Shown here one piece after another: positions 6,341-26,300 of a DNA stretch of 64,000 nt. The translations under genes were made by a program, and so were the position numbers. Under the pieces are notes generated by a model. It was not told where the DNA came from, did not search any database, and worked only from the letters and a program-made list of their open reading frames with translations. Numbering within the stretch: position 1 is the first letter of the stretch; every line of letters starts with the position of its first letter. The DNA lies in IMG/VR virus record IMGVR_UViG_3300042564_002372, positions 45,828-109,827 of that record. One strand, 5' to 3'. The DNA is from a virus.

Positions 6341-9262
6341 TTACATGGATTTAATTGCCTTGACAAGAGCTCCGTTTTTACCTGTAGTCATCTTCTTCTG
6401 TTTTTCCTGAGCAACTTCCATTTGCTTTGCATACAATTCAATTTCCTTTGGAGTCATGTTTCCAAATGGTGTACCAGAATATCCTGATCCTTCTAAGTTA
6501 AACTGGGCAAGAGGATTCATATTCATTGCTCTGAAGCGTGGATCAAATCTGTAATTGTAAAGGTTTTCGTATGTTTGAAGGGTTCTGTTCTCAGCCTGGT
6601 TCTGTAGATATTTAGCAGAGATAGAATTGAGAGCAGCTTGAGTAATGGCCTTTGTATTAGAAAGAGCTTGTTGTTGTCTTCCGTATTGTTGATCAAGAAT
6701 TTGTAAATTTCCTAGACCAAAATCATTTAACATTTTTCTGTTATCAGCATACACTTGATTCTTCATAGCCTGATTTAACTTAAACTGCTCACCAAGAACT
6801 TTTTGATTGGCTGCATATTTCTGTGCATTCAACGCAGCTAATGCAGCTGGATTAAATCCAATCAATCTTTGAGCAGCTCTATAATCAGCTTGGTTTTGAT
6901 TAATATTCTCCTGTAGAGAAATATCAAACGGAACAGTTAGCTGTGGCTGTAAAGTTTGTGCTTGTACAGGCTCTAATTGATTTTGAGCAAGAGCTAGCAT
7001 CTCTCCAGATAGCTGACGTGGATCAAGAGCTTCTGCATCAGTTGGTCTAACATAAGGAAGAACTTGATTAACTATATTCATCCAATTAAATTTTTCTTCA
7101 GCAGCGGGCTTAGGTCTCTGTTTAATTCCTGCCTTATCAACACTTTCAGGAACTTTAATTTCTAAACTTCCTGGTCCTCTTTGCATTTCTCTTTTACCAA
7201 GTACATTAACTCCTGGTAAATTAATGTATTCTGGATAAGTCTGTAGTTGATTTTCTAACATGTATCTAACTCCAGGTTCCAATGCTAAAGCATTTCTGTA
7301 TATTTTATCGCTAATGTCTTCACCGCCTTGAGCTTTCTTAACCGAAGCTCCTTTCTTAGCCTTTTTCACTTTACCCTGTGCTAAATCATCAGCTACAAGA
7401 TTGTATTCTTCAGCAGTGTCATTAATAGCAGATTGTAGATTAGCTAGTTTTATTTTCTCATCAGCAATAGTCTTGAGCGTTTGATTTCCTCCATACGCAT
7501 TTGCTTTCAATGATTCGAAAGTGAGTAGGTCGTATGGACTAGTAACATTTAAGTTGTCAAGTTCTGTAACAGACTTATCGATAAGTTTATTTTGTTTCTG
7601 CTCAGTTTTAGATAGGTCAGCAACATAGTTTTTAAACTTCTTACCTGCTGCTTTAGGAATACCAATCATCTCAGCACCAAACTTTGGAACTTTTAAGTTA
7701 CCAAATACTGTAAGACTAGTATTTCCTGTACCATCTTTTAATTTAACAGCAGGTTCTTCTCCTTCCACTTCAACACTTGCTTTTCCAGTAGCAGCATCTG
7801 TACCGTATTCTGCATAATCTGTATAACTATCGTTTCCTGTATCACCAAAAGAAGCACCTATTCCAGTTCTTCCCTTTCCATCAGACTCATCATGAGAATT
7901 ACCTTTAAACATTACAGTTTCTCCTCCTTCAGGAAGATGATGATTATATGAAATAGGTTCTGCATATCCACCCCAATGAGTTTTAAGATCACCACCCATA
8001 GCAAATTTATCTCTTCCTGTATACATTGCACGTTCGCTAGGAGGGGTGTAACTTTTTAAATGTCCACCTGCACGTAGTGTATCCATTGTTGGATCTGGAG
8101 CAAACAATCTAGTTAATGGTATACCTTCAAGTTCTGTTGCCACCTGTGGATTTGCAATACCACCATCTCTCATATAAGAGTAGTTTTGTTGTTGCAGTCC
8201 TTGAGTGCCTTGATCAAAAGCCATCTGCTCAATGTTACTTTGAGTTTTTCTATTAGCAGCTTCTGTTTTTCTAACATTTCCGCTGCCTACAAGATTACCA
8301 AGAGTCTGACCAGCAAACTTTCCAATCATACCTCCAACTGGACCACCAAGCAATGTACCTGCTACACTTCCAATTCCAGCACCTACTTTTCCAGCACCAG
8401 TAACGCCATATCCTTTTGGACTTCCGAGTCCAGCAGTGAGTTGAGAAAGAGCATCTCCTCCTCCCTGTTCTTGAAACTTAAAGATGTCAGTTTTTTGACC
8501 AGACGAATTCATTTTCAAAAAATCAGGATTGGTTTTGAAGTTTGAAAACATACCACCATCAGCAGCTTCTTCCAAGTCTGTGTAAATAGTGTTAGGAGCA
8601 AATGTGTTTGCTATCTCTGTACCATTCTTTGCAACAGTGGTTCCTACGCCATAGATGGGAAAGAACTCTCCTCCTGTATTAATATTATCTTCTGGACGTA
8701 CATATTTTCTTTGAACTTGCTCAGGACGTGTCATAGAAGCTTTACGAGCAACACCACTAACTTCAGCCATTTGCTGTGCTTGTTGGCGCATGTCTTTTTC
8801 TTCGCCCATTTGTTGGATACCACTAACTACGTCACCAGCTGCTTGAGCAACAGCCATTGGTCCACCAGCTTTACCAACACCCTTACCAATTTTTCCAAAC
8901 ATGTCAGCCATGCCTGATTTACCCATTGGCATTGTCTCATCACCAAAAAGAGCCTTCTTCAACTTCTTGCCATTCTTAGCACCTTTCTGTTGTGAAGCAA
9001 GTTGTGCCATTTTTAAAGCTTCCTCATCACGCATATCTTGTGTTGAGCCAGTGATGAACATATCATTCTGGTCATACAACTGTTGAAAGTTGATTGGTTG
9101 AGGATTAAACTGAAGAGATGTATTTCCTTGAATCATAGCTCCCATCTGAGCTTTCTTCAAAGCTTTCCCATGAACCTTCATAAAAGATTCTTCTGTAGGG
9201 AATTTTTTGTAAAATTCTTTCTCAGACTTAACACCTGCTATCTTTAAAATTTCAGCCTTCAT
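6341..9262 (-). CDS. Putative internal virion cargo protein (973 aa) with glycine zipper and repeated A-x-x-G(G) linkers
   Basis: Gly zipper GAGIGSVAGTLLGGPVGGMIGKFAG; GNSHDES and EVEGEEP motifs; about 10 AQMG/AKNG/ADGG/AMGG/AQGG-type motifs; Q/N-rich C-terminus. Confidence 0.6.
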   Translation of the reverse strand: MKAEILKIAGVKSEKEFYKKFPTEESFMKVHGKALKKAQMGAMIQGNTSLQFNPQPINFQQLYDQNDMFITGSTQDMRDEEALKMAQLASQQKGAKNGKKLKKALFGDETMPMGKSGMADMFGKIGKGVGKAGGPMAVAQAAGDVVSGIQQMGEEKDMRQQAQQMAEVSGVARKASMTRPEQVQRKYVRPEDNINTGGEFFPIYGVGTTVAKNGTEIANTFAPNTIYTDLEEAADGGMFSNFKTNPDFLKMNSSGQKTDIFKFQEQGGGDALSQLTAGLGSPKGYGVTGAGKVGAGIGSVAGTLLGGPVGGMIGKFAGQTLGNLVGSGNVRKTEAANRKTQSNIEQMAFDQGTQGLQQQNYSYMRDGGIANPQVATELEGIPLTRLFAPDPTMDTLRAGGHLKSYTPPSERAMYTGRDKFAMGGDLKTHWGGYAEPISYNHHLPEGGETVMFKGNSHDESDGKGRTGIGASFGDTGNDSYTDYAEYGTDAATGKASVEVEGEEPAVKLKDGTGNTSLTVFGNLKVPKFGAEMIGIPKAAGKKFKNYVADLSKTEQKQNKLIDKSVTELDNLNVTSPYDLLTFESLKANAYGGNQTLKTIADEKIKLANLQSAINDTAEEYNLVADDLAQGKVKKAKKGASVKKAQGGEDISDKIYRNALALEPGVRYMLENQLQTYPEYINLPGVNVLGKREMQRGPGSLEIKVPESVDKAGIKQRPKPAAEEKFNWMNIVNQVLPYVRPTDAEALDPRQLSGEMLALAQNQLEPVQAQTLQPQLTVPFDISLQENINQNQADYRAAQRLIGFNPAALAALNAQKYAANQKVLGEQFKLNQAMKNQVYADNRKMLNDFGLGNLQILDQQYGRQQQALSNTKAITQAALNSISAKYLQNQAENRTLQTYENLYNYRFDPRFRAMNMNPLAQFNLEGSGYSGTPFGNMTPKEIELYAKQMEVAQEKQKKMTTGKNGALVKAIKSM

Positions 9263-9263
9263 A

Positions 9264-12200
9264 TCAGTTGTATTTATCCAGCCAGTTATCCTTGTCTGGG
9301 TTATTTGTAAAGTTAAGTAATTGATTTAATTTTTTCATTGGTTGGGCATCTAATTGATTGATTCCCAATTCAGCAACTGGATACTCTGTCACCTTCTTTC
9401 CTTTGAATTTATAATTCTTTCCTGGCTTCATAAGCTTTGTATCTCCTGCATCAGAAACACCAACAACATCGTAAGGAACTCCTTCCATAGTGATGTAGTT
9501 GCTATCAATCTCTGTCACTTTTCCAGGATGTGCCCATTGACCTCTGTTGTCTTTTATCACTCCTCCTTTTCTTTTCTTTGGAAGATAGAATCTATCATAT
9601 ATTTCAATAGGGTTCATCATTCTATTCAAAGCAGGATTATTAAAATCATACTTATCATAAATAGAAACATAAGAACCATCAGGACTCTTCTGTAATGTAA
9701 ATCTTTGTAAAGGATCTATATCTCCAAATTTTACATTCTTATCTGTGTCTGCATTTTCAGAATACCACTTACTATCTAAGATTGGTAACAAACCATTCAT
9801 TTCCATTTTCTCACCAGGTTTTAAATCCTTAGTGAGGTTCATCAACTCATAATCATCAATAACATCTCTGATAGTGTAATACTTAGCATCAGGATCTTTT
9901 GCTACAGAAGGTTTGTACTTTGACTCTTTTAGATATTGTCTTTCGCCAGGGATGTTCATTGCTGTTGCCCAGAACTCTTCAGCCAAGTGTGGTTTACCAC
10001 TTTTAGTTTTCAATGGTTCAGATTCATTACCCATTAAATAATTATATGCATATACAGGAAGTTTTAATGCATTAGGATAATCTACTGGCCTAACAGTTTT
10101 ATACACCTCTGTATTACTTAAAGGTTTTAACGCATTTAATAAACTAAGAGCCTTTGTTGTAACAGGATCAGATATTTCTTCAGATACAAACTTTGTTGCT
10201 TTTTTTGCAAAACTTTCTTCTCCACCATCCTGCATACTCTTTGGTTTCCAATCCAATCCATTCTGGTAGAATTTCATTTCTCCACCATTCTGTTTTTTAG
10301 GAACTTCATTCTTTGACTCTTCTGATTTTTCTTTAGCTTTTTTATGCATGTAGCTAGAACCACCTATTATTCCAGCTCCTGCAACGCCAGCTCCTTTAAA
10401 GTATTTGTTATTTTGAGCATTATTCCAATCTTTCAAAACATCCATTTGCTTTTCATCAGCAATCTTAGGTGTGCTAAGCATTACAGCATCAACTGCTTCA
10501 TTTTCTTTTGCTACACCTTTTGGAAAGCTTTGGACTTTCTCAATCAACTTATTATTGTTGTGATCAAAAAAGTTTCCAGCATCATCATAGTATATTCTAT
10601 TTTTTAAATCAAAAGGTGCTCCTCCAGTTAAAGAAGACACTTCAAATTCTTTTAATTTTTTTGGTAATCCTTTAATTGGTTGAAGAGGTTGTAAGTCCCA
10701 AGTGTCTGTGAAATCAACAAATTTTCTACCTTGTTCATCCACTCCTTTTGTAATCCATCCATTACCATGAACGGCACCAAAATTAAATTCTGGTCGAACT
10801 TCCATTGTCCCAAATGAAGACTTAGGATTATCAACTATAGATTGTAAATCTTCCTTTCCAATTCTAAAATCATTTATTGCTAATGTATTATCTGCATTTT
10901 TAGAAAATGTATCATAGTTAGGTTCTAATCCATTATATAATCTCCAAGCATCAAATCTATTTTTAGTAGCATGTGTCTTAGGTTTAAATTTTAAAAAATT
11001 TGGAGTTAGTAATTCTGCTGGGGAAGCTAAAACTGTAAAAGGATCATAGCCTATAGGTGTGATACTTCTATTTACAACTTCTCCTACTTGTTTTGTTAAA
11101 TTTTTACCAAGTTGTTTACCAACTAATTTAGATCCTCCCCCAATCAATGTTGGATCAATTGCTGATAGTCCAATGTTTGCAGCATTCTGTAAAAACCCTT
11201 CTGGATTTTCATAGCCTAGAACATCAGAAAGATCTCTTTGACTGCTTCCAAATTGTCCAAAGTTTGGATTTACATTACTGAAGTTATAAGGCTTACCTGT
11301 CAACATTGCAACAGTTTCTGCTAATGCTGCTGTAGGAACTTGCTCAAGCTTCATTAGGTTTTCAGGAATGCCATATAATGCTGCTGTTGTAAAGTCACGC
11401 AATGAGTCCATTGTGTAACTTCTAGGAGCTGTGACAGTTACTTCAGGTAAGTCAGGTAGAGTGAATGCACCATCATAGTATGTGCCCACTTGCCTGTTCC
11501 TATACATCTCTGGATAGCGGGGATCGTTTATAGATATTCTTTCTATGTCATCGCCCTTTTGCGCAGAAGGTATTCCTCCACCATTTTGAAATCCATCAAT
11601 TGGGTAGTATGATTTTCTACCATATACTTCACCAGTTTTTTCTCCAGACTTAGAGTTTATATAATTTGCAAGCTTCTTAGCAGTGGCAGCAGGACTCATG
11701 CTTTCAGTCTTTGTAGGTAGAGGTTGTGATTTAGGATATATTAATTCAACATCACCACTAGGATATACTCCTTCAATATCACTACTACTAATTACATTAG
11801 GTGAACTTGTTTGAGACATTACATCATAAGCTGTTTCTGCACCTAGTGCTCCAAGAAGACCTCTATTCCACAGCAATGAATTATTTGTCATTCCTTTCAC
11901 ATTACTAAAAAGCTCCAAATACCCTGTATCAGTTTTGTTTAAATTTATAGGGGAGTTGGCAGCACGTCTTGCTTGTTCTGTTAATGGATACAATGGATCG
12001 CCAGGTCTTAGCATCATTGCAGGTCTTCTAAAAGTGTTTGCTCCTAGGAATGTTGGTAAAGCAACACTAGCCAAATTAATTCCTGCATTTAAGTAATTAC
12101 CTCTATAAGCCTCATCAGCACCTTGTAATCCATCTACAATCATTCCAGCAATATTGCCAACTCTACCAACAGCTTGTGCAGTTGGATGAGGAATAAAGTT

Positions 12201-13565
12201 TCCCATTTGCATTACATCAGTTGCTACATCAGCATACCCAAGCCCTTGTCGTATCAATTCTTCGCCACGTCCAGGAGCTTGTTTTAGCTGAGGTAGGCTT
12301 TGTAGATATTTGAAATATTGATATTCTGGATTTTCTTTAAGTTCTAGTCCTGCAATTTTATTAGCAATATTAGTATCTATATTTGTTTCATCTTTTTCAA
12401 TCTTTTTTCCTTTCTGTGCTGAAGCCATTGTCTTCTTTGCATACTTTCCTTTGCTAGGAGCAGAACCAGCTGTACGTGCGTATGTAAATCCTACAGAGCC
12501 AGGAATAGACATACCACCCATTGCAATTGGTGTAATTTCTTCATCACCTTTAGCAATGATGTTCATTAGCTTGATAAAGTTTTCATCACCTGTCAACATG
12601 AGTGTTCTGTCAAGTGATTCATTATTCTTTAATTGTTTTTTTGCTTTATCCAGATCTTCTTTTGTAAACTCTTTACCTTTTCTAATATCATAAATATCTT
12701 TATCATACATTAGGAATCTAAGAGCATTTAAGTCAGATCTTAACTCACGAGGTTTTTCTAAATGTTGAGCATCTTGTACTTTTGACCAAAGTTCTGGAGT
12801 TAAAACTTTAGGAAGTTTCTTAGTCCAGTTTGGATCTATTGATGATCTTAGTAAATTAATTTCTTTACTACTAAGATCTGATTCGTATGTATCTATTGCA
12901 TGTGCAATTTCATGGGCCTTTACTGTATTTACATCTCCATCAAAATCTCTTGGATTAATATTAGCTACTCCCTCACCCTCAAAAAATTCAGATCTTTTTG
13001 TTGGATCATAGGTTATAGCACCTGGTCGTTGAAGCTTTTCTAGTTCTAGAAAGTTACTTCTCATTTCCCTATCAATTAAACCACCGCTATATGGATCAAG
13101 TATTTCATCTCCTGTAACAGGGCTATATTCAGGAAATTCTTGATAACCTGTTTCTATTTTTCTTCTTCTATATTCTGGACTAGTAATCCAAGATTTGAAA
13201 AACTCTACTGGATCTTTTGTTTTTTCTAAATAAGGAACTGTGGGTATAGGAGTATATTCAGGCATTCTAGCTGCTTGATCAAATGGAGAAGGATCTCTAA
13301 AGCCTTGTACAACCACTTCAGGAAGATTATATTGAGCTGCAATGCCCCTGTCCTTCTCCTCTTGCATTTTCTTATTCATGTAGGCAGTTACACCACCTTG
13401 AGCAATTGGAATAAGTTCACCACCATCTTGAAACTGTCCTCCCCATGCGGGAGAATAGTTTCTTCCTTTAGTGTTATATCCTAGTCCAACAAAGCCTTCA
13501 GGAAGGCTAACGTTTGAATCATTAGCGTTGTCTGCTTTCCCAAAGTTATCTAACCATCCTTTCAT
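9264..13565 (-). CDS. Modular (polyvalent-like) virion cargo protein (1433 aa) with zincin HEXXH module
   Basis: HEIAH at about 12900-12914 followed by a downstream Glu; modules separated by FQDGG/AQGG/AMGG/AQKG/FQNGG/KQNGG/MQDGG/KRKGG. Confidence 0.6.
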   Translation of the reverse strand: MKGWLDNFGKADNANDSNVSLPEGFVGLGYNTKGRNYSPAWGGQFQDGGELIPIAQGGVTAYMNKKMQEEKDRGIAAQYNLPEVVVQGFRDPSPFDQAARMPEYTPIPTVPYLEKTKDPVEFFKSWITSPEYRRRKIETGYQEFPEYSPVTGDEILDPYSGGLIDREMRSNFLELEKLQRPGAITYDPTKRSEFFEGEGVANINPRDFDGDVNTVKAHEIAHAIDTYESDLSSKEINLLRSSIDPNWTKKLPKVLTPELWSKVQDAQHLEKPRELRSDLNALRFLMYDKDIYDIRKGKEFTKEDLDKAKKQLKNNESLDRTLMLTGDENFIKLMNIIAKGDEEITPIAMGGMSIPGSVGFTYARTAGSAPSKGKYAKKTMASAQKGKKIEKDETNIDTNIANKIAGLELKENPEYQYFKYLQSLPQLKQAPGRGEELIRQGLGYADVATDVMQMGNFIPHPTAQAVGRVGNIAGMIVDGLQGADEAYRGNYLNAGINLASVALPTFLGANTFRRPAMMLRPGDPLYPLTEQARRAANSPINLNKTDTGYLELFSNVKGMTNNSLLWNRGLLGALGAETAYDVMSQTSSPNVISSSDIEGVYPSGDVELIYPKSQPLPTKTESMSPAATAKKLANYINSKSGEKTGEVYGRKSYYPIDGFQNGGGIPSAQKGDDIERISINDPRYPEMYRNRQVGTYYDGAFTLPDLPEVTVTAPRSYTMDSLRDFTTAALYGIPENLMKLEQVPTAALAETVAMLTGKPYNFSNVNPNFGQFGSSQRDLSDVLGYENPEGFLQNAANIGLSAIDPTLIGGGSKLVGKQLGKNLTKQVGEVVNRSITPIGYDPFTVLASPAELLTPNFLKFKPKTHATKNRFDAWRLYNGLEPNYDTFSKNADNTLAINDFRIGKEDLQSIVDNPKSSFGTMEVRPEFNFGAVHGNGWITKGVDEQGRKFVDFTDTWDLQPLQPIKGLPKKLKEFEVSSLTGGAPFDLKNRIYYDDAGNFFDHNNNKLIEKVQSFPKGVAKENEAVDAVMLSTPKIADEKQMDVLKDWNNAQNNKYFKGAGVAGAGIIGGSSYMHKKAKEKSEESKNEVPKKQNGGEMKFYQNGLDWKPKSMQDGGEESFAKKATKFVSEEISDPVTTKALSLLNALKPLSNTEVYKTVRPVDYPNALKLPVYAYNYLMGNESEPLKTKSGKPHLAEEFWATAMNIPGERQYLKESKYKPSVAKDPDAKYYTIRDVIDDYELMNLTKDLKPGEKMEMNGLLPILDSKWYSENADTDKNVKFGDIDPLQRFTLQKSPDGSYVSIYDKYDFNNPALNRMMNPIEIYDRFYLPKKRKGGVIKDNRGQWAHPGKVTEIDSNYITMEGVPYDVVGVSDAGDTKLMKPGKNYKFKGKKVTEYPVAELGINQLDAQPMKKLNQLLNFTNNPDKDNWLDKYN

Positions 13566-13566
13566 A

Positions 13567-14433
13567 TTACTTGTACGAGATTTGTGCTGGAGCTATAATG
13601 AATTGTGAAACTAAATGAGCGTCTGAACGATTGTCAAGAATGTGTCTGATTTTCAATTCTTTAGCTCTAAGGGGTTCTTTCTTAAATGATCTTGATCCAT
13701 AGTCCATGTTGATTTGATTCACTTCTTTATCAAGAGAAAGTGATTGACATGTTCTGACAAAGAGTGGTATGCTCTTGTCTTTCACTACAGACCAGAATGT
13801 ATTGTACTGATAGAAGTTATCACTCTTAGTAAATGTGATAGTCTTGCTTTCAGCATTTAATATAGGATATTGTAAGTAGGATTTCAAATTATTGATTGGT
13901 TTTGGCACCAGCTCCAATACACCTGTACTCTGCTGTCCATTGTAAAGAACAGCTTTATTAAACCATATATTGTCAAGTTCTATTCTTGATACATCATTTG
14001 ACACACCATAAGGATCACTAAAGTATTTGTACACCTTAGTGTAGTCTTTTACATTCTGAAGAATCTCATCTTGATATTGATATGCAAAAGGATATTCAAT
14101 AATGTATGGCTCTATGTGTCCATAGAATGTATTGTAGATAGTGTGATCTAGAAGATGTCTCCAGACACAAGCTGTCTGAATAGTTTCTAAAGGAGTGTTT
14201 TGATATTGATCCTGCGTAATAGTTGTGACAGGGAATGATTTTTGGTACGCACACTTTCCTTCAGATGTAATTGTAATCAAGTCAACACTATCATCTACAA
14301 TGAAACTAATGCCTGTAGTTACTTCAGAGAGTGTTACACCTGAGGCAATAACATTCCCATACGCATCTGTGATGGTGAAAGGCCCTGAGTTAGGGCCTGT
14401 CTTTGTTAGTTTTATAGCGATAGTCTTTGACAT
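13567..14433 (-). CDS. Tail protein: small beta-domain plus probable C-terminal part of the stabilization/nozzle protein
   Basis: N-terminus TIAIKLTKTGPNSGPF resembles 14435-14890 and 28181-28432, followed by VWRH..YNTFYG..PYIIEYPF..FNKAVLYN. Start placed at the second Met. Confidence 0.55.
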   Translation of the reverse strand: MSKTIAIKLTKTGPNSGPFTITDAYGNVIASGVTLSEVTTGISFIVDDSVDLITITSEGKCAYQKSFPVTTITQDQYQNTPLETIQTACVWRHLLDHTIYNTFYGHIEPYIIEYPFAYQYQDEILQNVKDYTKVYKYFSDPYGVSNDVSRIELDNIWFNKAVLYNGQQSTGVLELVPKPINNLKSYLQYPILNAESKTITFTKSDNFYQYNTFWSVVKDKSIPLFVRTCQSLSLDKEVNQINMDYGSRSFKKEPLRAKELKIRHILDNRSDAHLVSQFIIAPAQISYK

Positions 14434-14434
14434 G

Positions 14435-14890
14435 TTATGGGCATCCAATATTTAATGTTTGTTGAATCGAGGCGTTATAACCACCTGGAGCAATACAACT
14501 TGTTATACTAGCTCCTGTGTATGTATAATACCTAACTGGTGAACCAGGAAGAATATATTGTTGACCTGCGCCAAGAGTTGGTTGAATCAATGTAAATCCG
14601 CTGTCCGCTGGATCACATCCTGCAAGTTGATAATATGTACTACATGTAGTTGTTGTTGTAGTAGTTACAGGAAATGTGAGAGTTATGTCTATAAAGTTAG
14701 TACACAAGCCAGTGGACTTCACACGAACAATTGTAGTTCCTACAGGAGCTAAAGTTGTTGTGTAGCCAGCTAAAAGAGCTGTTCTAGACACACCTGTTAC
14801 AAATGCTGTAGTGTATCCATCTATATTAGAGAAGAGGCTAAATGGGCCTGTATCTACCCCAGCTGCGCTCAATGTTATTGTTATAGTCAT
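14435..14890 (-). CDS. Small virion decoration/adhesin-like protein with poly-Thr linker
   Basis: Paralog of 28181-28432 (ITLxxAGxDxGPFxLxSNxDGY); TTTTTTT linker; Cys pairs. Confidence 0.55.
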   Translation of the reverse strand: MTITITLSAAGVDTGPFSLFSNIDGYTTAFVTGVSRTALLAGYTTTLAPVGTTIVRVKSTGLCTNFIDITLTFPVTTTTTTTCSTYYQLAGCDPADSGFTLIQPTLGAGQQYILPGSPVRYYTYTGASITSCIAPGGYNASIQQTLNIGCP

Positions 14891-14927: not shown

Positions 14928-17900
14928 TTAAGATGGGCAATTACATTCAGGATCAAAACAGCCAACACCTTGTGACAAGAATCCACAATCATCACTTATG
15001 ACTTCAGTAACACATGCTATGAAACACAATCCTTCATCTTGAGGAGGTATATTGTAGGTAATTGTTACACCATTTTCATTCTTGAAGACAAATGTACATC
15101 CACCAAATGGAGCTGATGTTAATATATGACAATCAGCTGGTATCTGAGTAGTTGTTGTAGTTGTAGTTGTGCTTGTAGTAGTAGTTGTTGTTGGAGTAAT
15201 TGGATTTTCAGTAGTTGTTGTAGTTGTTGTAGGTGCCTCAGTAGTGGTGGTTGTGGTTGTAGTTGGGATAGTTGTTGTTGTAGTTGTAGTCCCACACGTT
15301 CCAGCAAACACTTGAGTTATCTCATTTGTATAATTTGTATGTGCACCTGATTGCAAAGAATACAAAGTGCTCAAATTACCATTTATATAATAGAAGCCAT
15401 TAGCATAATTTGTAAATGACCAGAATGGTTGAGGATTCGTAGTATCACAATTTACATCTATATCATATACAAAGAATGTATATCGAGGAGTGGCTGTAGT
15501 TGTAGTGGTAGTTGGAGGCGTAGCGGTAGTAGTTGTAGTGGTAGTAGTAGAACATGGAGTACCATTATCACTTGTGCTACCGCTTTGGAAGAACCAATAA
15601 TTTGTTCCATCAGAGTAGTATCCATCAGGTATAGGAGTGGTTAAACTACTATCAGTATATAAGAATGTACCACTTACAATATTAGGTCCATTAGTAGATG
15701 ATGCGTAGAATGTTGCTCTATTAAATGCAGCATAATCAGCACAAGCCAATGGTCCAGTACTTAAATTAGGAGTACTATTCAACAAGAAACTATAAAATGC
15801 TACTGTTGTCGTTGTTGTTGTAGTTGGGGTAGCAGTTGTTGTTGTCGTAGTAGTTGTTGGAGCAGCTGTAGTAGTTGTAGTTGTTGTAGAGCTTGTTGTA
15901 CTAGTAGTAGTTGTACTAGTAGTACTAGTTGACGTTGTAGTTGTTGTAGATGTGGAGGTTGTAGTAGTTGTTGGTCCAACCAAAATACAATCTAAAGATA
16001 CAATCACTCCAACACCTGCTAGAGAACAGTTTATCTCCCGAACTGTAGCTGTTATGTTACACTGCAAAGGAGCAACAGTAGTTGATGTTGTAGTTGTTGT
16101 TAATCTTGTAGTTGATGTTGTAGTGGTAGTAGTTGGATTAGCAACTAATGTTCCTACTAAGAAATCAAAGTCTTCACAGCAATTGTTTTGTCCAGAATAG
16201 AAGAAGTTATTCTCTGCAATATAGAAGTTTGGAAGATAGCTGTGAAAGCTTATCCAACTATTCGTGTTCATGTTAAAAGACAATGTCCACGATACATTGC
16301 AGAAGTATTCTTCATCACTAAGACTAATGTCTTGTCTGATGGTTAGACCATTGACAATATTGTTGATGTAGAAACTTTGTTCAACTGGATCATACAGAAT
16401 GTTTTTTGACTTTGGTGCATAATCAAGTTTTGTAATAATCACTCTATCGTATACAGCATCATAGACACCATGTAATCCTATTCCTTTGAAGTGATTATCA
16501 ATATTCACTTCTGGGAAATTTTTGTAGATTATAAATGGTAGATGCTCAACAAAGAATCTATTCATTCCTGATCCAAATCCAGACAAGTCAGTCACTTGTG
16601 TTCCTTGAATTAAGAACACTTGTGCCCTCTTTGCATCCACTGTAATCTGACCTTGAGGAATCTTCAAAAGCATTCTATGCTGACTTCCCACATACCCAAG
16701 ATCAGTTTCTGCAAAGTCAATTGGAGGAGCACCTCTAAACAATAATGGATTACCTACATAAGCAGCTTGAGGGTTGCTTGTGTCAATAGTCAATAGATTA
16801 TTGTACAACAATGTCTTATTCTCAAATCTGGCCAGAATAGCTTTATTCTGTATACCATCTAGGCTTATAAGATTTCCATAGTTCTGTGGGAAATCAAAGT
16901 AAGAAATAGCTCTGTAGATGAGCCAGTTGTTCACTCTGTTGTCAGCATCGATATTCTGAGCATCAGAATAGATTGTTCTGAATGGGTAGTTTGTGAAACA
17001 AAGTCTCGCTTCCCAGTCAGGAGGTAGGTGAGTGAATGTGTTCTCTCTATTTTGCTTTGAGAATGTTGTATTGTAGTAATAGGTATTGTCTTGAGCAATA
17101 GGAACAAAGCTCTGTTGCAACCAGTCATCTGGAATGTCTGTACTAACATGTGGCCAGAAGTCTCCCTCTCTATTGTTAAACGCTTGTCTTAAATCAAGAT
17201 TGTAAGAGCTCTCGCAATAGAAGTTTGGAATGCCATAGGCAAACAGATAGAAGTAACCATCGTAATATGTAATAGTTGAGCTTGGTGTTACTCCTCCAGA
17301 TCCACCTTGAGGGAAAGTTGTACTAGTGGTAGTGGTGGTAGATGTAGATATAATCACATCTGTTCCCACCTCATTAGGACAGTCGAAGTTGTGTGCTTTG
17401 TAAGAAATGATGTTAGCCATCACTCCTTGTCCAGGAATGCTGTAGTTCTCGAGAATTGATCTCGCAGAGTGCCAGTATCTAGGATATGCAACGTTACCTA
17501 TCTCATCATAGAAGATGTCGCTATCATCAGGAGCGTTCACTCTGTTATCAATAAAGAATGGAAGCTTTGTTTTGAATGCGAATCTGCTAATAAATGTGTC
17601 ACCACCAAACACAGTGGTGGTTGGATTAGGTGAGTTAATTATGTATTGATAACCTGTATCAATTGTTTCGTATGAATAGATTTGTCCCCACTGATTGATA
17701 ATCATGTCTTTCAGTGATGCATAATATGAAACAACCTGTATCGGTTCTTCCTTAGCTGGTGTTCCACAGTTTCCTATTTCTGAAATAGTGAATCTTGATC
17801 TATCTGAAACAATACTTGTTGTTCCAGAAAGCATGTTTGGACTCTGGTTAGGAAATGGTAAAGCTGTAGTGTCTTCGTTTGTTTTTACAAAGACAGAGCT

Positions 17901-20621
17901 TTCTCTGTTCCAGTTATTGATTGGTAAATCATCACCAACAGCTTGTACACCTGGAATTAAATATCTAGATATGTCGAGTTCTCTTTGTTTGATTCCTTGA
18001 TTATCAGGAACACCTACGCCATAATTATAGTCAGCTATAGAGTTAAAAGAGTAAGCATAATTCTTTCTAGTGATGCCATTGATATAGATAGTTAAATAAG
18101 ACTGATATGCAGTGAACATAGCTGTTGCACTGAATGGTGTAGTGATACCTCCAAGTCTAGCAGAACTATCAAGAGCAGCCTTTTGTGCAGCTTCAGAGAG
18201 CAATTTATATTTAGCATTGTCTTTCACTTCTACAAAGTGAGCTTTACCAGTACCAAACATTACACTTTCAAGCTTGAGAATGTCTGCTAGGAATGGTTGA
18301 CCAAATGATGTCTCTGGGGAGTTGAAGATTTGTCTATATCTATTCTCATCTTTAAAACCATCAAGTAGTGTTGTGTTACCACAATTTGCGTCAGATCTCA
18401 CTTTTGATATCAAACGTATTTGAGAAGTTGCACAATCTGCTGTACATATCACTGCTGTATCAGCAACTACCTCAACAGTAACTTCTGAAGCACCAACACT
18501 TCTAACTGTTGGTCCTAAAAATCTATCATCATAAGATGCTGTAAATGTAGCAAGTGCATAATCATCTAATTCATAGACATCATAGTCAGCATATCCTACA
18601 TCGCCTGCACCAATGATAATTGTTGGCTTTCCAACAGAGCAAATCTCGTCATTCTGTATAGAAGTGTAATCCTTGTAGACAAGTTTGTTATTCTCGCAAG
18701 AATAGTATTGAATTCTAGCCAATGGAGCACCAGTAATTAGGTCAATTCCTAGGCTAGTGATGATTACATCAAATGGCTTACACTCACTCTGGTAAGCATT
18801 GTTTGTTGTTGTAAGGAATGGATCTTCGTTAAGATCGTTGTAAGGATAGTTAGGGAAATAGAACGATTGTTCTTCTCTTTGATACTCACCAACGTTTCTT
18901 AAAATACCTTTAGCAACAATAGACTTATTAACACTTCTATCACCACGAACAATCTTAAATCCTACAATGTCAGCTTTCTGATCATCTGTAAGATTTGATA
19001 TTTGAATTAGATTTAATATTTGAGAAGGATCAAGTTTTACACCAATAGGAAATACAGCATCATTCCCCATCACCATTGATTGTGGTGTGGAGAACACTTT
19101 ACTTTCATAAATAGCTGAGATGTTTACATCTGGGAACTTGTGGTGTCTGATTTTTTGTCCTGCAAGGTTTCCCCACACGTCTGTGTTGCATGGATACTCT
19201 TCAACAGATTCCCAATAGGCAAATTCGCCAAATTGATATGGTCCTTTGTAAGCATCATTTGCTGAATATTCTGAAGAGAATCCTGTGACAGAAGCTGTGT
19301 TATAAATCTTCCAATACGGTGCATCATTAGTTAATGGGTCTGGTTCTCCTATAAAATCTGGGTTAGTATCAGGGATTCTTGGCAAGAGTTGCTCAAAAGA
19401 TGTAATAGCTCTACCTGGAATGTGAAAACCATCTGTTTGTTTTCCATTCTTCAATAGAAATACAATCTCAAAAGCATACACTTCATCACGAAGATATCCT
19501 CTTAGATTCGTTGCGTTTATTTCGTTTGCGTAGTTCTCTGTTGGAGGAATTCTCCAAGATTCCCATTGCAATGTAATTTGACTAGCAATTTGTTGATAGT
19601 TGATTCTATCAATAGACGTTAACTGATCCCATACAAGAACATCTTGGACAGCAGTTAAGTCTTGAGCAATCTCATAGAATGGAAACTTCTCAAAGATGTC
19701 AGCAATGTCAAGAACAATTGTTGATTGACCTGTGTATGTAATCTGTCTAATACTGTTGTCAATAAAGTATGTACCAACAAGATCAACAGATGTTACACCA
19801 TTGATTGTTTTGATTACAGCAAGATTGAAATATTCAAATTGTCCAGTTGTATCAAGGTTGTCAATAGTAACAACAATAGACTTTCCTACAGGATAGTTGA
19901 AGTTAACTGATGTAATAAACTCATCAGCAATAGGTGTAGGATTGGTAACTGAGTAGTAGGATGTGAATGGATTACCAGCTGGATCAGAATACTGAATAGC
20001 AAACTGATATGTACCAGCAATAAGGTTTCCACCACTAACAACGTCAGTGATTACTATCTCAGGAATGTTAAAGTTAGGCTGAAGCTTGAGTTGATTACAA
20101 TCAAGATCATCTGTATAGATTGGGCTACAAAGAGGACTTCCTGATCTAAGAATCTTAGGAATGTCATCAATGTCCAAGTATCTTCTAGGGTTGTAACCAT
20201 CTGTCCAATAAATCTCTGTATTACAGTTTGTGATTCTGTGGACAATCTTATGTATAGGATAGTTGATGTTGAAGTTTAAGCAAGGAGCATTTACCAACAC
20301 TCTATACACACAATCATTATTATCCATGTAGCCAATCTGGCTATCTCCTGTGGAGGGATTAGTAATGAAGAATATGTGTTTGTTCTTTTCTATAATGAAG
20401 TGCTCACCTATAACAACAAATCCTTCAGGTACACGAAGACAAAATTCGTTACCAGATTCGTTCTGATAGTTTACAGAATTAGAATCAAAGTTTTCAACAG
20501 CAGCGTTTAGAGCATAAGTTAGCCTCCCCTTTTGAATTTGATTCAGTGACTGATCAAGATTCAATCCTGTAGTGGCATTGTTATACTCCTGTCTGACGTT
20601 ACCTTCTTCTTGCTCAGCCAT
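14928..20621 (-). CDS. Tail stabilization/nozzle protein (P22 gp10-like, crAss-type) with Thr-rich C-terminal extension (1897 aa)
   Basis: Beta-rich; LTYALNA..EN, IYWTDGYNPRRYLDID, GTYQFAIQY, RGYLRDEVYAFEIVF and WISFHSYLPNFY motifs; follows the ring-protein genes. Confidence 0.7.
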   Translation of the reverse strand: MAEQEEGNVRQEYNNATTGLNLDQSLNQIQKGRLTYALNAAVENFDSNSVNYQNESGNEFCLRVPEGFVVIGEHFIIEKNKHIFFITNPSTGDSQIGYMDNNDCVYRVLVNAPCLNFNINYPIHKIVHRITNCNTEIYWTDGYNPRRYLDIDDIPKILRSGSPLCSPIYTDDLDCNQLKLQPNFNIPEIVITDVVSGGNLIAGTYQFAIQYSDPAGNPFTSYYSVTNPTPIADEFITSVNFNYPVGKSIVVTIDNLDTTGQFEYFNLAVIKTINGVTSVDLVGTYFIDNSIRQITYTGQSTIVLDIADIFEKFPFYEIAQDLTAVQDVLVWDQLTSIDRINYQQIASQITLQWESWRIPPTENYANEINATNLRGYLRDEVYAFEIVFLLKNGKQTDGFHIPGRAITSFEQLLPRIPDTNPDFIGEPDPLTNDAPYWKIYNTASVTGFSSEYSANDAYKGPYQFGEFAYWESVEEYPCNTDVWGNLAGQKIRHHKFPDVNISAIYESKVFSTPQSMVMGNDAVFPIGVKLDPSQILNLIQISNLTDDQKADIVGFKIVRGDRSVNKSIVAKGILRNVGEYQREEQSFYFPNYPYNDLNEDPFLTTTNNAYQSECKPFDVIITSLGIDLITGAPLARIQYYSCENNKLVYKDYTSIQNDEICSVGKPTIIIGAGDVGYADYDVYELDDYALATFTASYDDRFLGPTVRSVGASEVTVEVVADTAVICTADCATSQIRLISKVRSDANCGNTTLLDGFKDENRYRQIFNSPETSFGQPFLADILKLESVMFGTGKAHFVEVKDNAKYKLLSEAAQKAALDSSARLGGITTPFSATAMFTAYQSYLTIYINGITRKNYAYSFNSIADYNYGVGVPDNQGIKQRELDISRYLIPGVQAVGDDLPINNWNRESSVFVKTNEDTTALPFPNQSPNMLSGTTSIVSDRSRFTISEIGNCGTPAKEEPIQVVSYYASLKDMIINQWGQIYSYETIDTGYQYIINSPNPTTTVFGGDTFISRFAFKTKLPFFIDNRVNAPDDSDIFYDEIGNVAYPRYWHSARSILENYSIPGQGVMANIISYKAHNFDCPNEVGTDVIISTSTTTTTSTTFPQGGSGGVTPSSTITYYDGYFYLFAYGIPNFYCESSYNLDLRQAFNNREGDFWPHVSTDIPDDWLQQSFVPIAQDNTYYYNTTFSKQNRENTFTHLPPDWEARLCFTNYPFRTIYSDAQNIDADNRVNNWLIYRAISYFDFPQNYGNLISLDGIQNKAILARFENKTLLYNNLLTIDTSNPQAAYVGNPLLFRGAPPIDFAETDLGYVGSQHRMLLKIPQGQITVDAKRAQVFLIQGTQVTDLSGFGSGMNRFFVEHLPFIIYKNFPEVNIDNHFKGIGLHGVYDAVYDRVIITKLDYAPKSKNILYDPVEQSFYINNIVNGLTIRQDISLSDEEYFCNVSWTLSFNMNTNSWISFHSYLPNFYIAENNFFYSGQNNCCEDFDFLVGTLVANPTTTTTTSTTRLTTTTTSTTVAPLQCNITATVREINCSLAGVGVIVSLDCILVGPTTTTTSTSTTTTTSTSTTSTTTTSTTSSTTTTTTTAAPTTTTTTTTATPTTTTTTTVAFYSFLLNSTPNLSTGPLACADYAAFNRATFYASSTNGPNIVSGTFLYTDSSLTTPIPDGYYSDGTNYWFFQSGSTSDNGTPCSTTTTTTTTATPPTTTTTTATPRYTFFVYDIDVNCDTTNPQPFWSFTNYANGFYYINGNLSTLYSLQSGAHTNYTNEITQVFAGTCGTTTTTTTIPTTTTTTTTEAPTTTTTTTENPITPTTTTTTSTTTTTTTTQIPADCHILTSAPFGGCTFVFKNENGVTITYNIPPQDEGLCFIACVTEVISDDCGFLSQGVGCFDPECNCPS
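15150..16135 (-). repeat. Poly-Thr (mucin-like) coding tracts
   Basis: (GTA/GTT/GTG)n runs on the + strand are mixed ACN codons; several tracts separate small Cys-bounded domains. Confidence 0.85.
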
Positions 20622-23304: not shown

Positions 23305-26300
23305 TTATAATGCTGCTGCTCCTATTGTAAATAGTGCTCCATTAATTTCAACAATTATTTGATGTGTCTCACCTGGCTGAGTTCCTATTACTGCTCTTCC
23401 TAATTTCCAAAATCCAGAAACATACCCTGTATCAAGAACTCCTGTTCTAATGGCTCCATTTATCTCTAATTTAGCTCCTGTACTTGTTGTCGTTCCAATC
23501 AGCACGTTGCCACCAGTAGTAATTGATAAATAATTAGTTGGCCAACTTGAAAATGTACTTGGTGAATTATTTGCTCTATATCCTATTCCAAAAGAATCTG
23601 CAACTCCCCAAGCAGCGGTTACCTGACCTATAGCCCAACTATGATTGGACACATTGCTATAAAATAAAACAGAAGGTCTGTCACCACCTGTTGAACCTGT
23701 AGAAAAATCAGATACAATACCATAACTATGATTACCCTCTCCATTTCTAACTTTCAATGCAGGAAAATAAACTCCACCAGCAGATTTGCTGTTGTTTATA
23801 TTTACTAAACCTTCATTGTTTGTGGAATCACCAATAACAGATAATCTTGATAATGGGCTAGTAGTTCCAATACCAACATTTCCATTCTCAGCAATAGTTA
23901 ATTTTGCATCTGCTAGTGTTGCACTACCAGCACTACCTTGAGGACCATTTAAAATATGTATCTTACCCTGTGCATCATTAGCCGTTAAGTCTGTTCTTTG
24001 AAATACAATAGCAGACTTTCTATATGCAGTGTTGGATTCTCTATATCCAAAATGGATACCTGACCACTGACCAATCCCCATTTGAGAAACCCCTACAGAA
24101 ACAAAATCATTAATATTTGATATTGCTTCCAAAGGTTTTTGAGGACTAATTGTTCCTACACCTACATTTCCATAAAATACAGAACTTTGATCTCCTCTAA
24201 AATCAGCAACATTTATAGGAACAGCATTACCTGTAGTACCTGGATATGCTCTAATTCTTAAAGTATTAGTTACGGCAGATCCTGCTGTTACAGTTGCATC
24301 TATACCAATCCATCTATTTACAGCTCCTGTTCCACTTTGTAAATCTGCTGCAAATCCGTATTTAATTAAATTTTCAAAACTCCCATCAACCCCACTAACA
24401 CTGCAATATTTTGCTATTTCTCCTGCTACTGAAAGTCTTTGAGCAGGATTAGTGGTATTAATTCCAACATTGCCATCTTGAAAAGCATACAACATTGAGG
24501 AGCCTGTAAACTTTATAGTGAATCCGTTTGAATATCCACTTTGTCCTGCTAAAAATATATCTCTTGCTCCTCCTGCTGAACCAACAGCAACAAGTCCATA
24601 TCCTGAAGTTCCTGTTGAAGTTATTATAGCAGCATTAGCACTTGATGAAGCTAAAAATTGTGCAGCCGTCACACTACTTGAAAAGCTAGCATTTCCTGTA
24701 TTTGGTACAATACGTAAAACGGTATTATTATTAGCTACATCATAAATACTAAAGTCACTATTATTAGCAGCATTTAGACCACCTACTAAATCCCAACTAT
24801 TACCACTTGTGCTATTTTGTAGTCTTAATCTTACGTTTGATTGGTCGTTATCATTAACAATAAGTGAAGGTGTTGCAACTCCACTAACTCCAAATAAAGC
24901 TTTTTTTGCCTGAACACTATTGCTAAAGGTTGCTGCGCCTGATGTATTAATTGTTAATAAATCAGAATATGATATTGTATTTCCTGCTGTTCCTGCGGCA
25001 TATCTTATCCTAAATAAATTTGCATTCCCAAAATCTGCCATCCAAGATGTATCAGTTACTTTAAACTGATAGGTATTGCCTGTTGAAGTATATTGAATGT
25101 TGTATCCTAATGCTGGATATCCACCTCCTGATAGACCTAAATCTACAGTACCAATCGTATTTGTAACTGCTGAAATATTCCCAGCAGATATGTTTCCGTT
25201 AACCTGCAACCTTTGCCCAGCGTCTGTAGTTGTGTTTACAAGTAGGTTTCCAGCTGAACTCATCACCATTCTAGCAGTAGATGCTGTTATATCATAAAGA
25301 TAAAATGAGCCTGAAAAACTACCATTTGCAGACCCAGCTACAGATAATTCATAAGCTCTGCTACTTGTGTTAACTATTGCTAAAACTGTTTGTGATGTAT
25401 TACTACTTGATAATCTTAATCCTGGACTTGTCCCATTTTGAAAAGCACTTCCAAAAATTTCAACTAAGGCAGTTGTATTGCTTGCAGTACCAATACCAAC
25501 ATTTGTTCCATTATCAAATATGTTACTATTACCAATAGAACTTGTGCCTGTAAACTTAGATAAATAGTTAGTTGTACCAGTTCCTGTAACTGTTCCGCCT
25601 CCATCTATTACCTCGATAACATTACCTGAAGAATCAACAGCTAAATTACGAGTTGCAGTTCCTGTAAATGTGCCTGCTCCATAAGCGTTAAGCCTTAACC
25701 CTCCTGAACCATTTATTCTTAATCTTGTGCTACTATCAAGAGCTGACCATGAATTTGCTATTTTAAAACTATCTCCATCAGAATTATCGATGCCTGCACT
25801 CCACCCAATAACACCGTTAATATCCCAAGAAAGAATTGGATCACCCCCTCCTGCCCCTGATGTTCTTAATGCTAAAAATGTATTTGCAGTTGTAATTGAA
25901 CTATTAGTATTATGAATATAAATACCAGGAACATCACTTGAAGCAGGAGATGTATAAGTTGAACCTGAACCTTCAATATGTAATTTAGCTAATGGAGTAA
26001 TTGTACCAAGTCCTATGTTTGTTCCATTGTCAAATAGTAAACTATTCCCAATTGTTGTAGAGCTTGTAAATTTAGTTATTGTGTTAGTTGTTCCAGAAAC
26101 TGCTACAGAGGTTCCAGAACTTCCTGATGTACCTCCACTGCCATTTGTTCCACTAGTACCACTAGTACCTCCAGTGCCTGATGTTCCGCTAGTACCTGTG
26201 GTACCAGATGAACCACTGGTGCCAGCTGTACCGCTAGTACCAGAAGTGCCACTCGTACCTGTTGTTCCAGATGTTGCACTTGTTCCTGACGTACCACTAG

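Follow-up and report, generated by a model that had tools for sequence, protein, structure and literature searches.

The DNA analysed here (the window) makes up the right-hand 64 kb of an IMG/VR record (IMGVR_UViG_3300042564_002372) that is 109,827 bp long and 95% complete. Judged by its protein families, the source genome is that of a crAss-like phage: crassvirus families recur across the structural genes (muzzle, ring 1, ring 2, capsid, portal and terminase), with family matches to PF25702 for ring protein 2 and PF24228 for ring protein 1, a major capsid protein that matches PF23898, and an identified portal and large terminase. On the minus strand, the muzzle gene is followed by genes for proteins of 151 and 293 residues, by P0001 (9264–13565, 1433 residues) and P0002 (6341–9262, 973 residues), and then by an 896-residue gene and larger genes. 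P0001 and P0002, whose open reading frames (ORFs) have the extents given in the initial annotation, are the subject of this report. The ORF, its homologues and hidden Markov model (HMM) matches to individual segments identify P0001 as a modular, cargo-like protein borne on a short conserved scaffold, with slots at fixed places that are marked by short peptides, here called seams. P0002 occupies the position of cargo protein C1 (gp45) of phage crAss001.

The scaffold is visible in the short members of the family. Searches with P0001 returned 380 homologues of about its own length and a further 419 that are shorter; most of them cover just 7–55% of the query, frequently at 60–95% identity. Nine complete proteins of 191–231 residues comprise four segments, S1 to S4, alone. 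Scaffold-only forms of 178–254 residues occupy the same genomic position as P0001 in IMG/VR loci, and the product of the scaffold gene ranges from 178 to 2000 residues. The segments were cut from an alignment of the short complete homologues, and a profile was built for each. A scan of 315 scaffold proteins (240 from protein searches and 75 distinct ones from IMG/VR loci) showed that the order S1-S2-S3-S4 is constant; the full set is the commonest arrangement (140 proteins), the remainder carry subsets, and none is permuted.

The segments of P0001 are S1 (residues 1–50), S2 (353–386), S3 (1096–1115) and S4 (1336–1433), all encoded on the minus strand. S1 (13416–13565), located by its HMM match, ends with the F-Q-D-G-G seam, and S2 (12408–12509; HMM E 1.3e-20) ends with an A-Q-K-G seam. 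S3, also matched by its HMM, lies together with the seam on either side (residues 1091–1115) at 10221–10295, and the K-R-K-G-G seam with S4 (residues 1331–1433; HMM E 1.6e-52) at 9267–9575. AlphaFold2 (AF2) predicts S1 to S3 to be disordered, with predicted local distance difference test (pLDDT) values below 45, and gives values below 50 for the linker that precedes S2. S4 is predicted to form a small β domain (pLDDT 75–82), which is followed by a W-L-D-K-Y-N tail. Identical residues of S2 and S3 use different codons in 29–36% of comparisons, which indicates that these peptides are under selection.

Two further observations concern the scaffold. The motif G-W-L-D-x-[Y/F] is present at its N- and C-terminal ends (window 13550–13562 and 9267–9284) and between S3 and S4 in many relatives; G-G-W-L occurs 1.9 times per 1000 residues in the scaffold family and not at all in any neighbouring family, and in crAss001 gp45 it stands where the portal-bound domain begins. 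The end of S4 (window 9267–9560) gives a weak profile match (hhalign E 0.054) to residues 371–432 of gp45 (L001:11988-14516), the stretch just before the portal-bound domain, which takes in a K-V-T-E piece and the G-G-W-L motif. A cupin-like or β-sandwich identity of the scaffold model was considered and set aside, the Foldseek and VIA-align matches being weak throughout (Z up to 5.2); crAss001 gp45 was not among them.

Inserts are confined to fixed slots with flanking motifs. They measure 3–682 residues between S1 and S2 (slot 1), 0–1168 between S2 and S3 (slot 2) and 3–1159 between S3 and S4 (slot 3), and are also found within or after S4. On the left, the insert directly follows F-Q-x-G-G (S1), S-A-Q-x-G (S2) or M-Q-x-G-G (S3). 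On the right, the next segment is immediately preceded by Phi-[A/Q]-M-G-G (S2), [F/K]-[Q/A]-N-G(-G) (S3) or [K/Q/F]-[K/R]-x-G-G (S4). Each scaffold segment is bracketed by seams, and seams also divide modules inside one slot, for example at residues 659–671 of P0001. Counted over distinct junctions, the right seam ends in G-G in 58 of 71 cases for slot 1, 27 of 38 for slot 2 and all 65 for slot 3; in some of the slot 1 and slot 2 junctions, A, T, M or Q stands in place of the second glycine. The family of module D of P0001 is found in all three slots as well as at the C-terminal end, each time with the right seam typical of that place. The right seam follows the slot and not the module, and thus the seams belong to the scaffold. 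The initial annotation had proposed a short scaffold that takes interchangeable modules at linkers. This idea is strongly supported by the scaffold-only homologues, the fixed segment order in 315 proteins, the motif-flanked slots and the movement of modules between slots.

All eight motifs that had been claimed for P0001 are found at the nucleotide positions reported for them. They comprise F-Q-D-G-G (residues 45–49), A-Q-G-G (55–58), A-M-G-G (348–351), A-Q-K-G (383–386), F-Q-N-G-G...A-Q-K-G (659–671), K-Q-N-G-G (1091–1095), M-Q-D-G-G (1111–1115) and K-R-K-G-G (1331–1335), and they do bracket four modules, of 289, 273, 419 and 215 residues. The strict form [A/Q]-x-G-G occurs seven times in P0001 against 1.0 expected, and none of 2000 composition-preserving shuffles reached seven. 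Its density of 4.9 per 1000 residues is about eightfold that in the other 92 ORFs of the genome (0.63), and the motif frequency of P0001 accordingly lies above the proteome background. In P0001, the loose form [A/Q]-x-x-G shows weak enrichment (P ~0.014). For P0002, the strict form is marginally enriched (5 observed, 1.9 expected, P ~0.05), and shuffles reveal no enrichment of the loose form over composition (P 0.12). Over 80 related loci, the strict motif reaches 4.7 per 1000 residues in the scaffold family and 3.7 in the C1 family, compared with 0–0.8 in neighbouring families. A compound form, I-P-x-A-[Q/E]-x-G, is confined to the scaffold and C1 families in these loci and is absent from ~270,000 residues of neighbouring proteins.

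The ends of sequence similarity fall at the same sites. Among 1135 internal ends of high-scoring segment pairs (HSPs) in P0001, 49% lie within 10 residues of nine motif sites, compared with 11% for random placement (0 of 5000 placements reach the observed value), in agreement with the earlier proposal that indel breakpoints of homologues coincide with the motifs. The ends pile up at residues 51–58, 341–360, 381–410, 581–590, 631–670, 821–840, 1081–1090, 1111–1130 and 1321–1340.

The slot 1 insert of P0001 (residues 51–352; 12510–13415, minus strand) consists of a compound linker, module A and the A-M-G-G seam at its end. Module A, which matches phrog_24249, has a zincin-like metallopeptidase fold in its AF2 model (pLDDT 80–95 over residues 90–336). 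H218, E219, H222 and E235 are invariant, and the H-E-I-A-H metal-binding motif (residues 218–222; 12900–12914, minus strand) is kept in 100 of 100 module A homologues. The zincin pattern emerged from exhaustive structure alignment alone, which returned nearly exclusively zinc metallopeptidases (PepO, Zmp1, ECE-1 and neprilysin at Z 6.5–6.9, with anthrax lethal factor, thermolysin and IrrE at lower rank), none of these matches being strong by itself. Foldseek returned nothing for module A at E <1 (ArdC appeared at E 1.5), and the ESM Atlas gave a weak lead only, LPD23 at 0.79.

Slot 2 holds two modules, which like module D are encoded on the minus strand. Module B (residues 387–659; 11589–12407) is found in slot 2 of 41 relatives and in a merged S2|S4 slot of three. 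It is separated from module C by the internal compound seam F-Q-N-G-G-G-I-P-S-A-Q-K-G (residues 659–671; 11553–11591), where HSP starts cluster at residues 631–670. Module C (residues 672–1090; 10296–11552) comprises sub-modules 672–835 and 836–1086, which occur in slots 2 and 3 of relatives. Slot 3 holds module D (residues 1116–1330; 9576–10220), whose family also occupies slots 1 and 2 and the C-terminal end in relatives. Sequence searches of each module against the PDB gave nothing significant, and no credible match came from Pfam searches with the individual modules at E up to 10; B, C and D have no relative in Pfam or the PDB and no convincing one in the ESM Atlas. Assignment of module B to the PT-TG family was rejected, as Pfam gave no PT-TG match at E up to 10. 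The weak ESM Atlas leads for module D are stand-alone viral proteins of 210–233 residues, at 0.90–0.93.

Across the family, 526 inserts of at least 50 residues fall into ~120 clusters at 70% mutual coverage, including 79 singletons. Modules show slot preferences: module A is found in slot 1 only, B in slot 2 and both halves of C in slots 2 and 3; D favours slot 3. The recognisable insert families are zinc peptidases and cell-wall enzymes. Pfam matches in 52 diverse relatives include SLT in nine and YkuD, PG_binding_1, M78, DUF6782 and GNAT once each; precomputed matches add Amidase_2, ART-PolyVal (PF18760, in relative P0058) and DUF3310. That the recognisable modules are mainly cell-wall-directed agrees with release of the protein from the particle during entry.

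The contents of the slots turn over while the scaffold persists. The nearest phage, L013, shares 90–92% nucleotide identity in the flanking genes; within the scaffold gene this identity ends near codon 54, just past the first seam, and slots 2 and 3 hold other content. The 85-nucleotide S3 segment is 93% identical to that of L013 while the modules on either side are unrelated, and S3 with its seams matches L013 and a second phage, L018, at 93–96% nucleotide identity with both neighbouring modules different. The scaffold-coding segments (~75–300 nucleotides each) are long enough to serve as recombination arms.

The modules also share terminal features. Many slot 2 and slot 3 modules start with [I/V]-S-x-x-D-P-R-Y right after the seam (window 11500–11552, P0001 residues 672–690, and relatives). 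Many end with a Gly/Ala-rich hydrophobic stretch and then a basic or Q-rich run before the seam (window 10340–10420, P0001 residues 1050–1075, and relatives); such ends may act as a membrane-active tail.

P0002 belongs to a family with 1134 representatives at E 0.001 and has a conserved core (residues 110–650 and 720–972). Insertions in its relatives occur after A-Q-M-G (residue 41) and at K-K-A-Q-G-G (residues 638–647), with fewer near residue 214. HSP ends lie near motifs in 44% of cases against 20% for random placement (P 0.005), mainly at residues 41 and 638–647. The A-Q-M-G seam (residues 38–41; 9140–9151, minus strand) is marked as an insertion point by 25 HSP ends within 10 residues and by junction sequences, and the A-Q-G-G seam (residues 644–647; 7322–7333, minus strand) is the main insertion point, with 46 HSP ends within the same distance. 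The initial annotation had taken about ten motifs of this protein as module linkers, which holds for two or three insertion points; the rest lie in the conserved core, and R-D-G-G, R-A-G-G and A-M-G-G are invariant parts of it. One relative in the C1 position, an A2 member, carries an SLT domain (E 2e-23), so the C1 family takes enzyme modules too.

The gene order is conserved. In 80 IMG/VR loci the order is ring 1, muzzle, orf293, scaffold gene, C1-like gene and two large genes, and in all 80, scaffold-only forms included, the scaffold gene is flanked by the 293-residue gene and a P0002 homologue. This order parallels crAss001, where the muzzle gene gp44 is followed by the genes for cargo proteins C1 (gp45) and C2 (gp46) and for the virion RNA-polymerase proteins (gp44, gp45, gp46, gp47). 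P0001 and P0002 are placed in the cargo block because the crAss001 gene order after the muzzle gene is alike. P0002 fits C1 in position, following the muzzle gene and preceding RNA-polymerase-like cargo genes, with two or three genes of the clade in between (orf151 in some loci, orf293 and the scaffold gene). The best explanation is that P0002 is the counterpart of crAss001 C1, with the same seam grammar at its two main insertion points. By this analogy, both P0001 and P0002 are probably carried inside the virus particle.

Among the neighbouring genes, the muzzle gene (14928–20621, minus strand, 1897 residues) was identified by PF25731 (E 1.2e-31). The 293-residue gene (orf293; 13567–14448, minus strand), always directly before the scaffold gene in the 80 loci, corresponds to the C-terminal part of phrog_15100. 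The muzzle gene thereby looks split: the 1897-residue protein matches positions 11–417 of phrog_15100 and the 293-residue protein its last part (1589–1781 of 1783). The putative split muzzle region covers window 13567–14890 and 14928–20621, and in some related loci the 151-residue gene lies in between. Farther along, window 23305–28152 encodes a 1615-residue collagen triple-helix repeat protein (PF01391, E 1.3e-39, 17% Gly), probably a tail fibre, in a region of raised G+C (0.45 vs 0.36).

The closest concept in the literature is that of the polyvalent protein (Iyer, Burroughs, Anand, de Souza and Aravind 2017, PMC5512222), which likewise unites many unrelated enzyme domains in one polypeptide in a late or virion gene setting, frequently includes a zincin-type metallopeptidase domain, and is proposed to be delivered with the invading DNA. 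P0001 combines the zincin module with three unrelated modules, and its relatives add SLT, YkuD, Amidase_2, GNAT and ART-PolyVal. A zincin domain is present (best Z 6.9), which may or may not belong to the MPTase family of that paper (ArdC appears only at Foldseek E 1.5). In contrast to polyvalent proteins, the scaffold family has a defined ~200-residue scaffold, fixed slots, one conserved seam peptide and scaffold-only forms; most of its modules fall outside any Pfam family, and those that can be recognised act mainly on the cell wall. The words ‘linker’ and ‘crAss’ each have zero occurrences in Iyer et al. 2017.

By position, the closest studied relative is crAss001 C1 (gp45; Bayfield et al. 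2023, PMC10172136), a chain threaded from tail to capsid that spans the portal and tail. It resembles P0002 in gene position, in a hydrophobic stretch rich in glycine and in its repeated Phi-x-G-G motifs, and, like the scaffold family, it has a G-G-W-L motif. Its resolved pieces begin at or after Phi-x-G-G motifs, one of them four residues past F-S-A-Y-G-G, and peptides from between the pieces were detected, consistent with a single chain that passes through the portal; no band assignment for gp45 was found in the crAss001 papers. Module swapping is not described for gp45 (PMC10172136), and P0001 has no counterpart in crAss001, where gp45 directly follows the muzzle gene. The slot scaffold and seam motif appear in neither Iyer et al. 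2017 nor Bayfield et al. 2023, and no description of a seam or slot scaffold was found in the literature on crAss-like phages with polyvalent proteins, transglycosylase or proteolytic processing.

Podovirus ejection proteins of the T7 gp16 type share with the family the SLT domain found in 9 of 52 sampled relatives; P0001 itself has no lytic transglycosylase domain by Pfam. Proteins of this type are presumed to be carried inside the virion and to exit ahead of the DNA. To our knowledge, T7 gp16 is not built of exchangeable cassettes on a scaffold.

On balance, we favour, with moderate confidence, the reading of P0001 as modular cargo on an uncut chain whose seams act as hinges and docking pieces, over both processing and purely passive linkers. 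P0001 is built on a conserved, mostly disordered scaffold of ~200 residues with four segments in fixed order, bounded by short seams that read either hydrophobic/basic - Q/K/A - x - G - G or A-Q-x-G. Slots are formed by the three inter-segment gaps and the site in or after S4, each empty or filled with one or several folded modules. Recombination in the scaffold-coding DNA (~75–300 nucleotides per segment) would swap slot contents faster than neighbouring genes diverge. The whole chain would be packed in the particle and extruded through the tail like beads on a string. Its seams would provide hinges and, jointly with the conserved peptides of the scaffold, would dock to the portal or the inside of the tail. 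The modules, here a zinc peptidase and elsewhere peptidoglycan enzymes and many of no known kind, might then act at the cell envelope or inside the host. The scaffold, its slots, the seam grammar, the swaps, the zincin fold and the gene order are observed. Packaging and injection of P0001 are inferred only from where its gene lies, with the muzzle gene on one side and the RNA-polymerase-like genes on the other, an arrangement also seen in crAss001; ejection, the hinge and docking role and the absence of cutting are likewise part of the proposal.

Several results weigh against this reading. The strong conservation of Q/K at position -3 and of G-G at every seam goes beyond the demands of a simple flexible linker; it resembles a recognition site, and a protease would account for that as well. 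The kinship of P0002 with gp45 is weak in sequence (BLASTP E 0.26; hhalign E 1e-4, probability 57%, over 52 columns), and PF25725 (crAss_CARG1) matches neither the genome at E up to 10 nor any of 16 P0002-family members at E up to 1. Among GenBank phages (50,697 records), no relative of P0001 or P0002 was found except for the zincin part, and no cultured relative of either. The disorder prediction for the scaffold was made from a shallow alignment of 20 sequences, and the S4 domain has no clear fold match, the portal-bound domain of crAss001 gp45 included.

The initial annotation had suggested a protease-processed polyprotein, in which the chain is cut after each G-G seam by the zincin in cis or by another phage or host protease, releasing modules and small scaffold peptides before packaging, in the head or after ejection. 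Polyproteins cut after Gly-Gly are known from the adenovirus protease and African swine fever virus pS273R (clan CE), and C39 peptidases act on double-glycine leader peptides. The seams resemble these sites in having a G-G dipeptide after a conserved residue pattern between functional units: each module is flanked at either end by a fixed G-G, with position -3 held by Q/K/A and position -4 by a residue that is hydrophobic or basic, within stretches predicted to be disordered and accessible. Module A would supply a zincin with invariant H-E-x-x-H and E235, and a processing role of metallopeptidase domains in polyvalent proteins has been proposed by Iyer et al. 2017, with phage P1 DdrB being processed (PMC5512222). 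All proteins with at least three inserts carry H-E-x-x-H, in both samples counted; the first was biased, its homologues having been drawn by similarity to a zincin-bearing query, and the count was repeated on the IMG/VR sample. In this latter sample, drawn by scaffold similarity only, however, 39 of 58 insert-bearing proteins lack H-E-x-x-H yet keep their seams, and scaffold-only proteins retain all seams though they have nothing to release. Cutting would liberate tiny peptides of S2 (34 residues) and S3 (21 residues), both strongly conserved. Unlike in the Gly-Gly-cleaved systems, the second glycine varies at some slot 1 and slot 2 junctions, and the genome gave no match to proteases C48, C5, C39 and S78, the only families searched for. 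Furthermore, crAss001 C1 is continuous through one such motif, its resolved segment 425–552 spanning A-F-G-G-W. Cleavage at the seams is thus somewhat disfavoured, and we regard it as rather unlikely.

Least probable is that the seams have no recognition role and are permissive loops, Gly-rich turns that tolerate insertion, the duplicated seam being a recombination footprint of similar coding stretches. N-G and D-G, standard turn formers, are indeed frequent at seam positions -2/-1, insertions occur at few sites, the right seam goes with the slot and not the module, and homology arms of 75–300 nucleotides are on hand; but the same compound grammar (G-G, then I-P-x-A-[Q/E]-x-G) recurs in the scaffold and C1 families, which have no detected sequence similarity, and nowhere in the ~270,000 residues of their neighbours, seams separate modules inside one slot away from any scaffold segment, and synonymous variation shows selection on the peptide.

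A broader proposal may be made, tentatively: the seams and scaffold peptides could form a general loading system of crassvirus particles, in which any module between two seams of the scaffold or of C1 is packed, passed along the portal and tail, and delivered. A dedicated partner would recognise the seams, either repeated binding sites in the portal or tail barrel or a protease of a new kind, and a shared pool of more than 100 modules, mostly without known function, would be shuffled as an arsenal for entry and takeover.

The crAss-like phages are among the most abundant viruses known, yet apart from DNA and RNA polymerase there is little knowledge of what they inject. Fixed slots marked in the sequence would, if true, provide a simple rule for spotting injected modules in metagenomes; here the rule delimits ~120 insert families, most without a known domain. 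In laboratory phage–host pairs, the slot scaffold would offer a testable way to load phage particles with foreign proteins, and it would also explain the quick change of entry and takeover tools in these phages.

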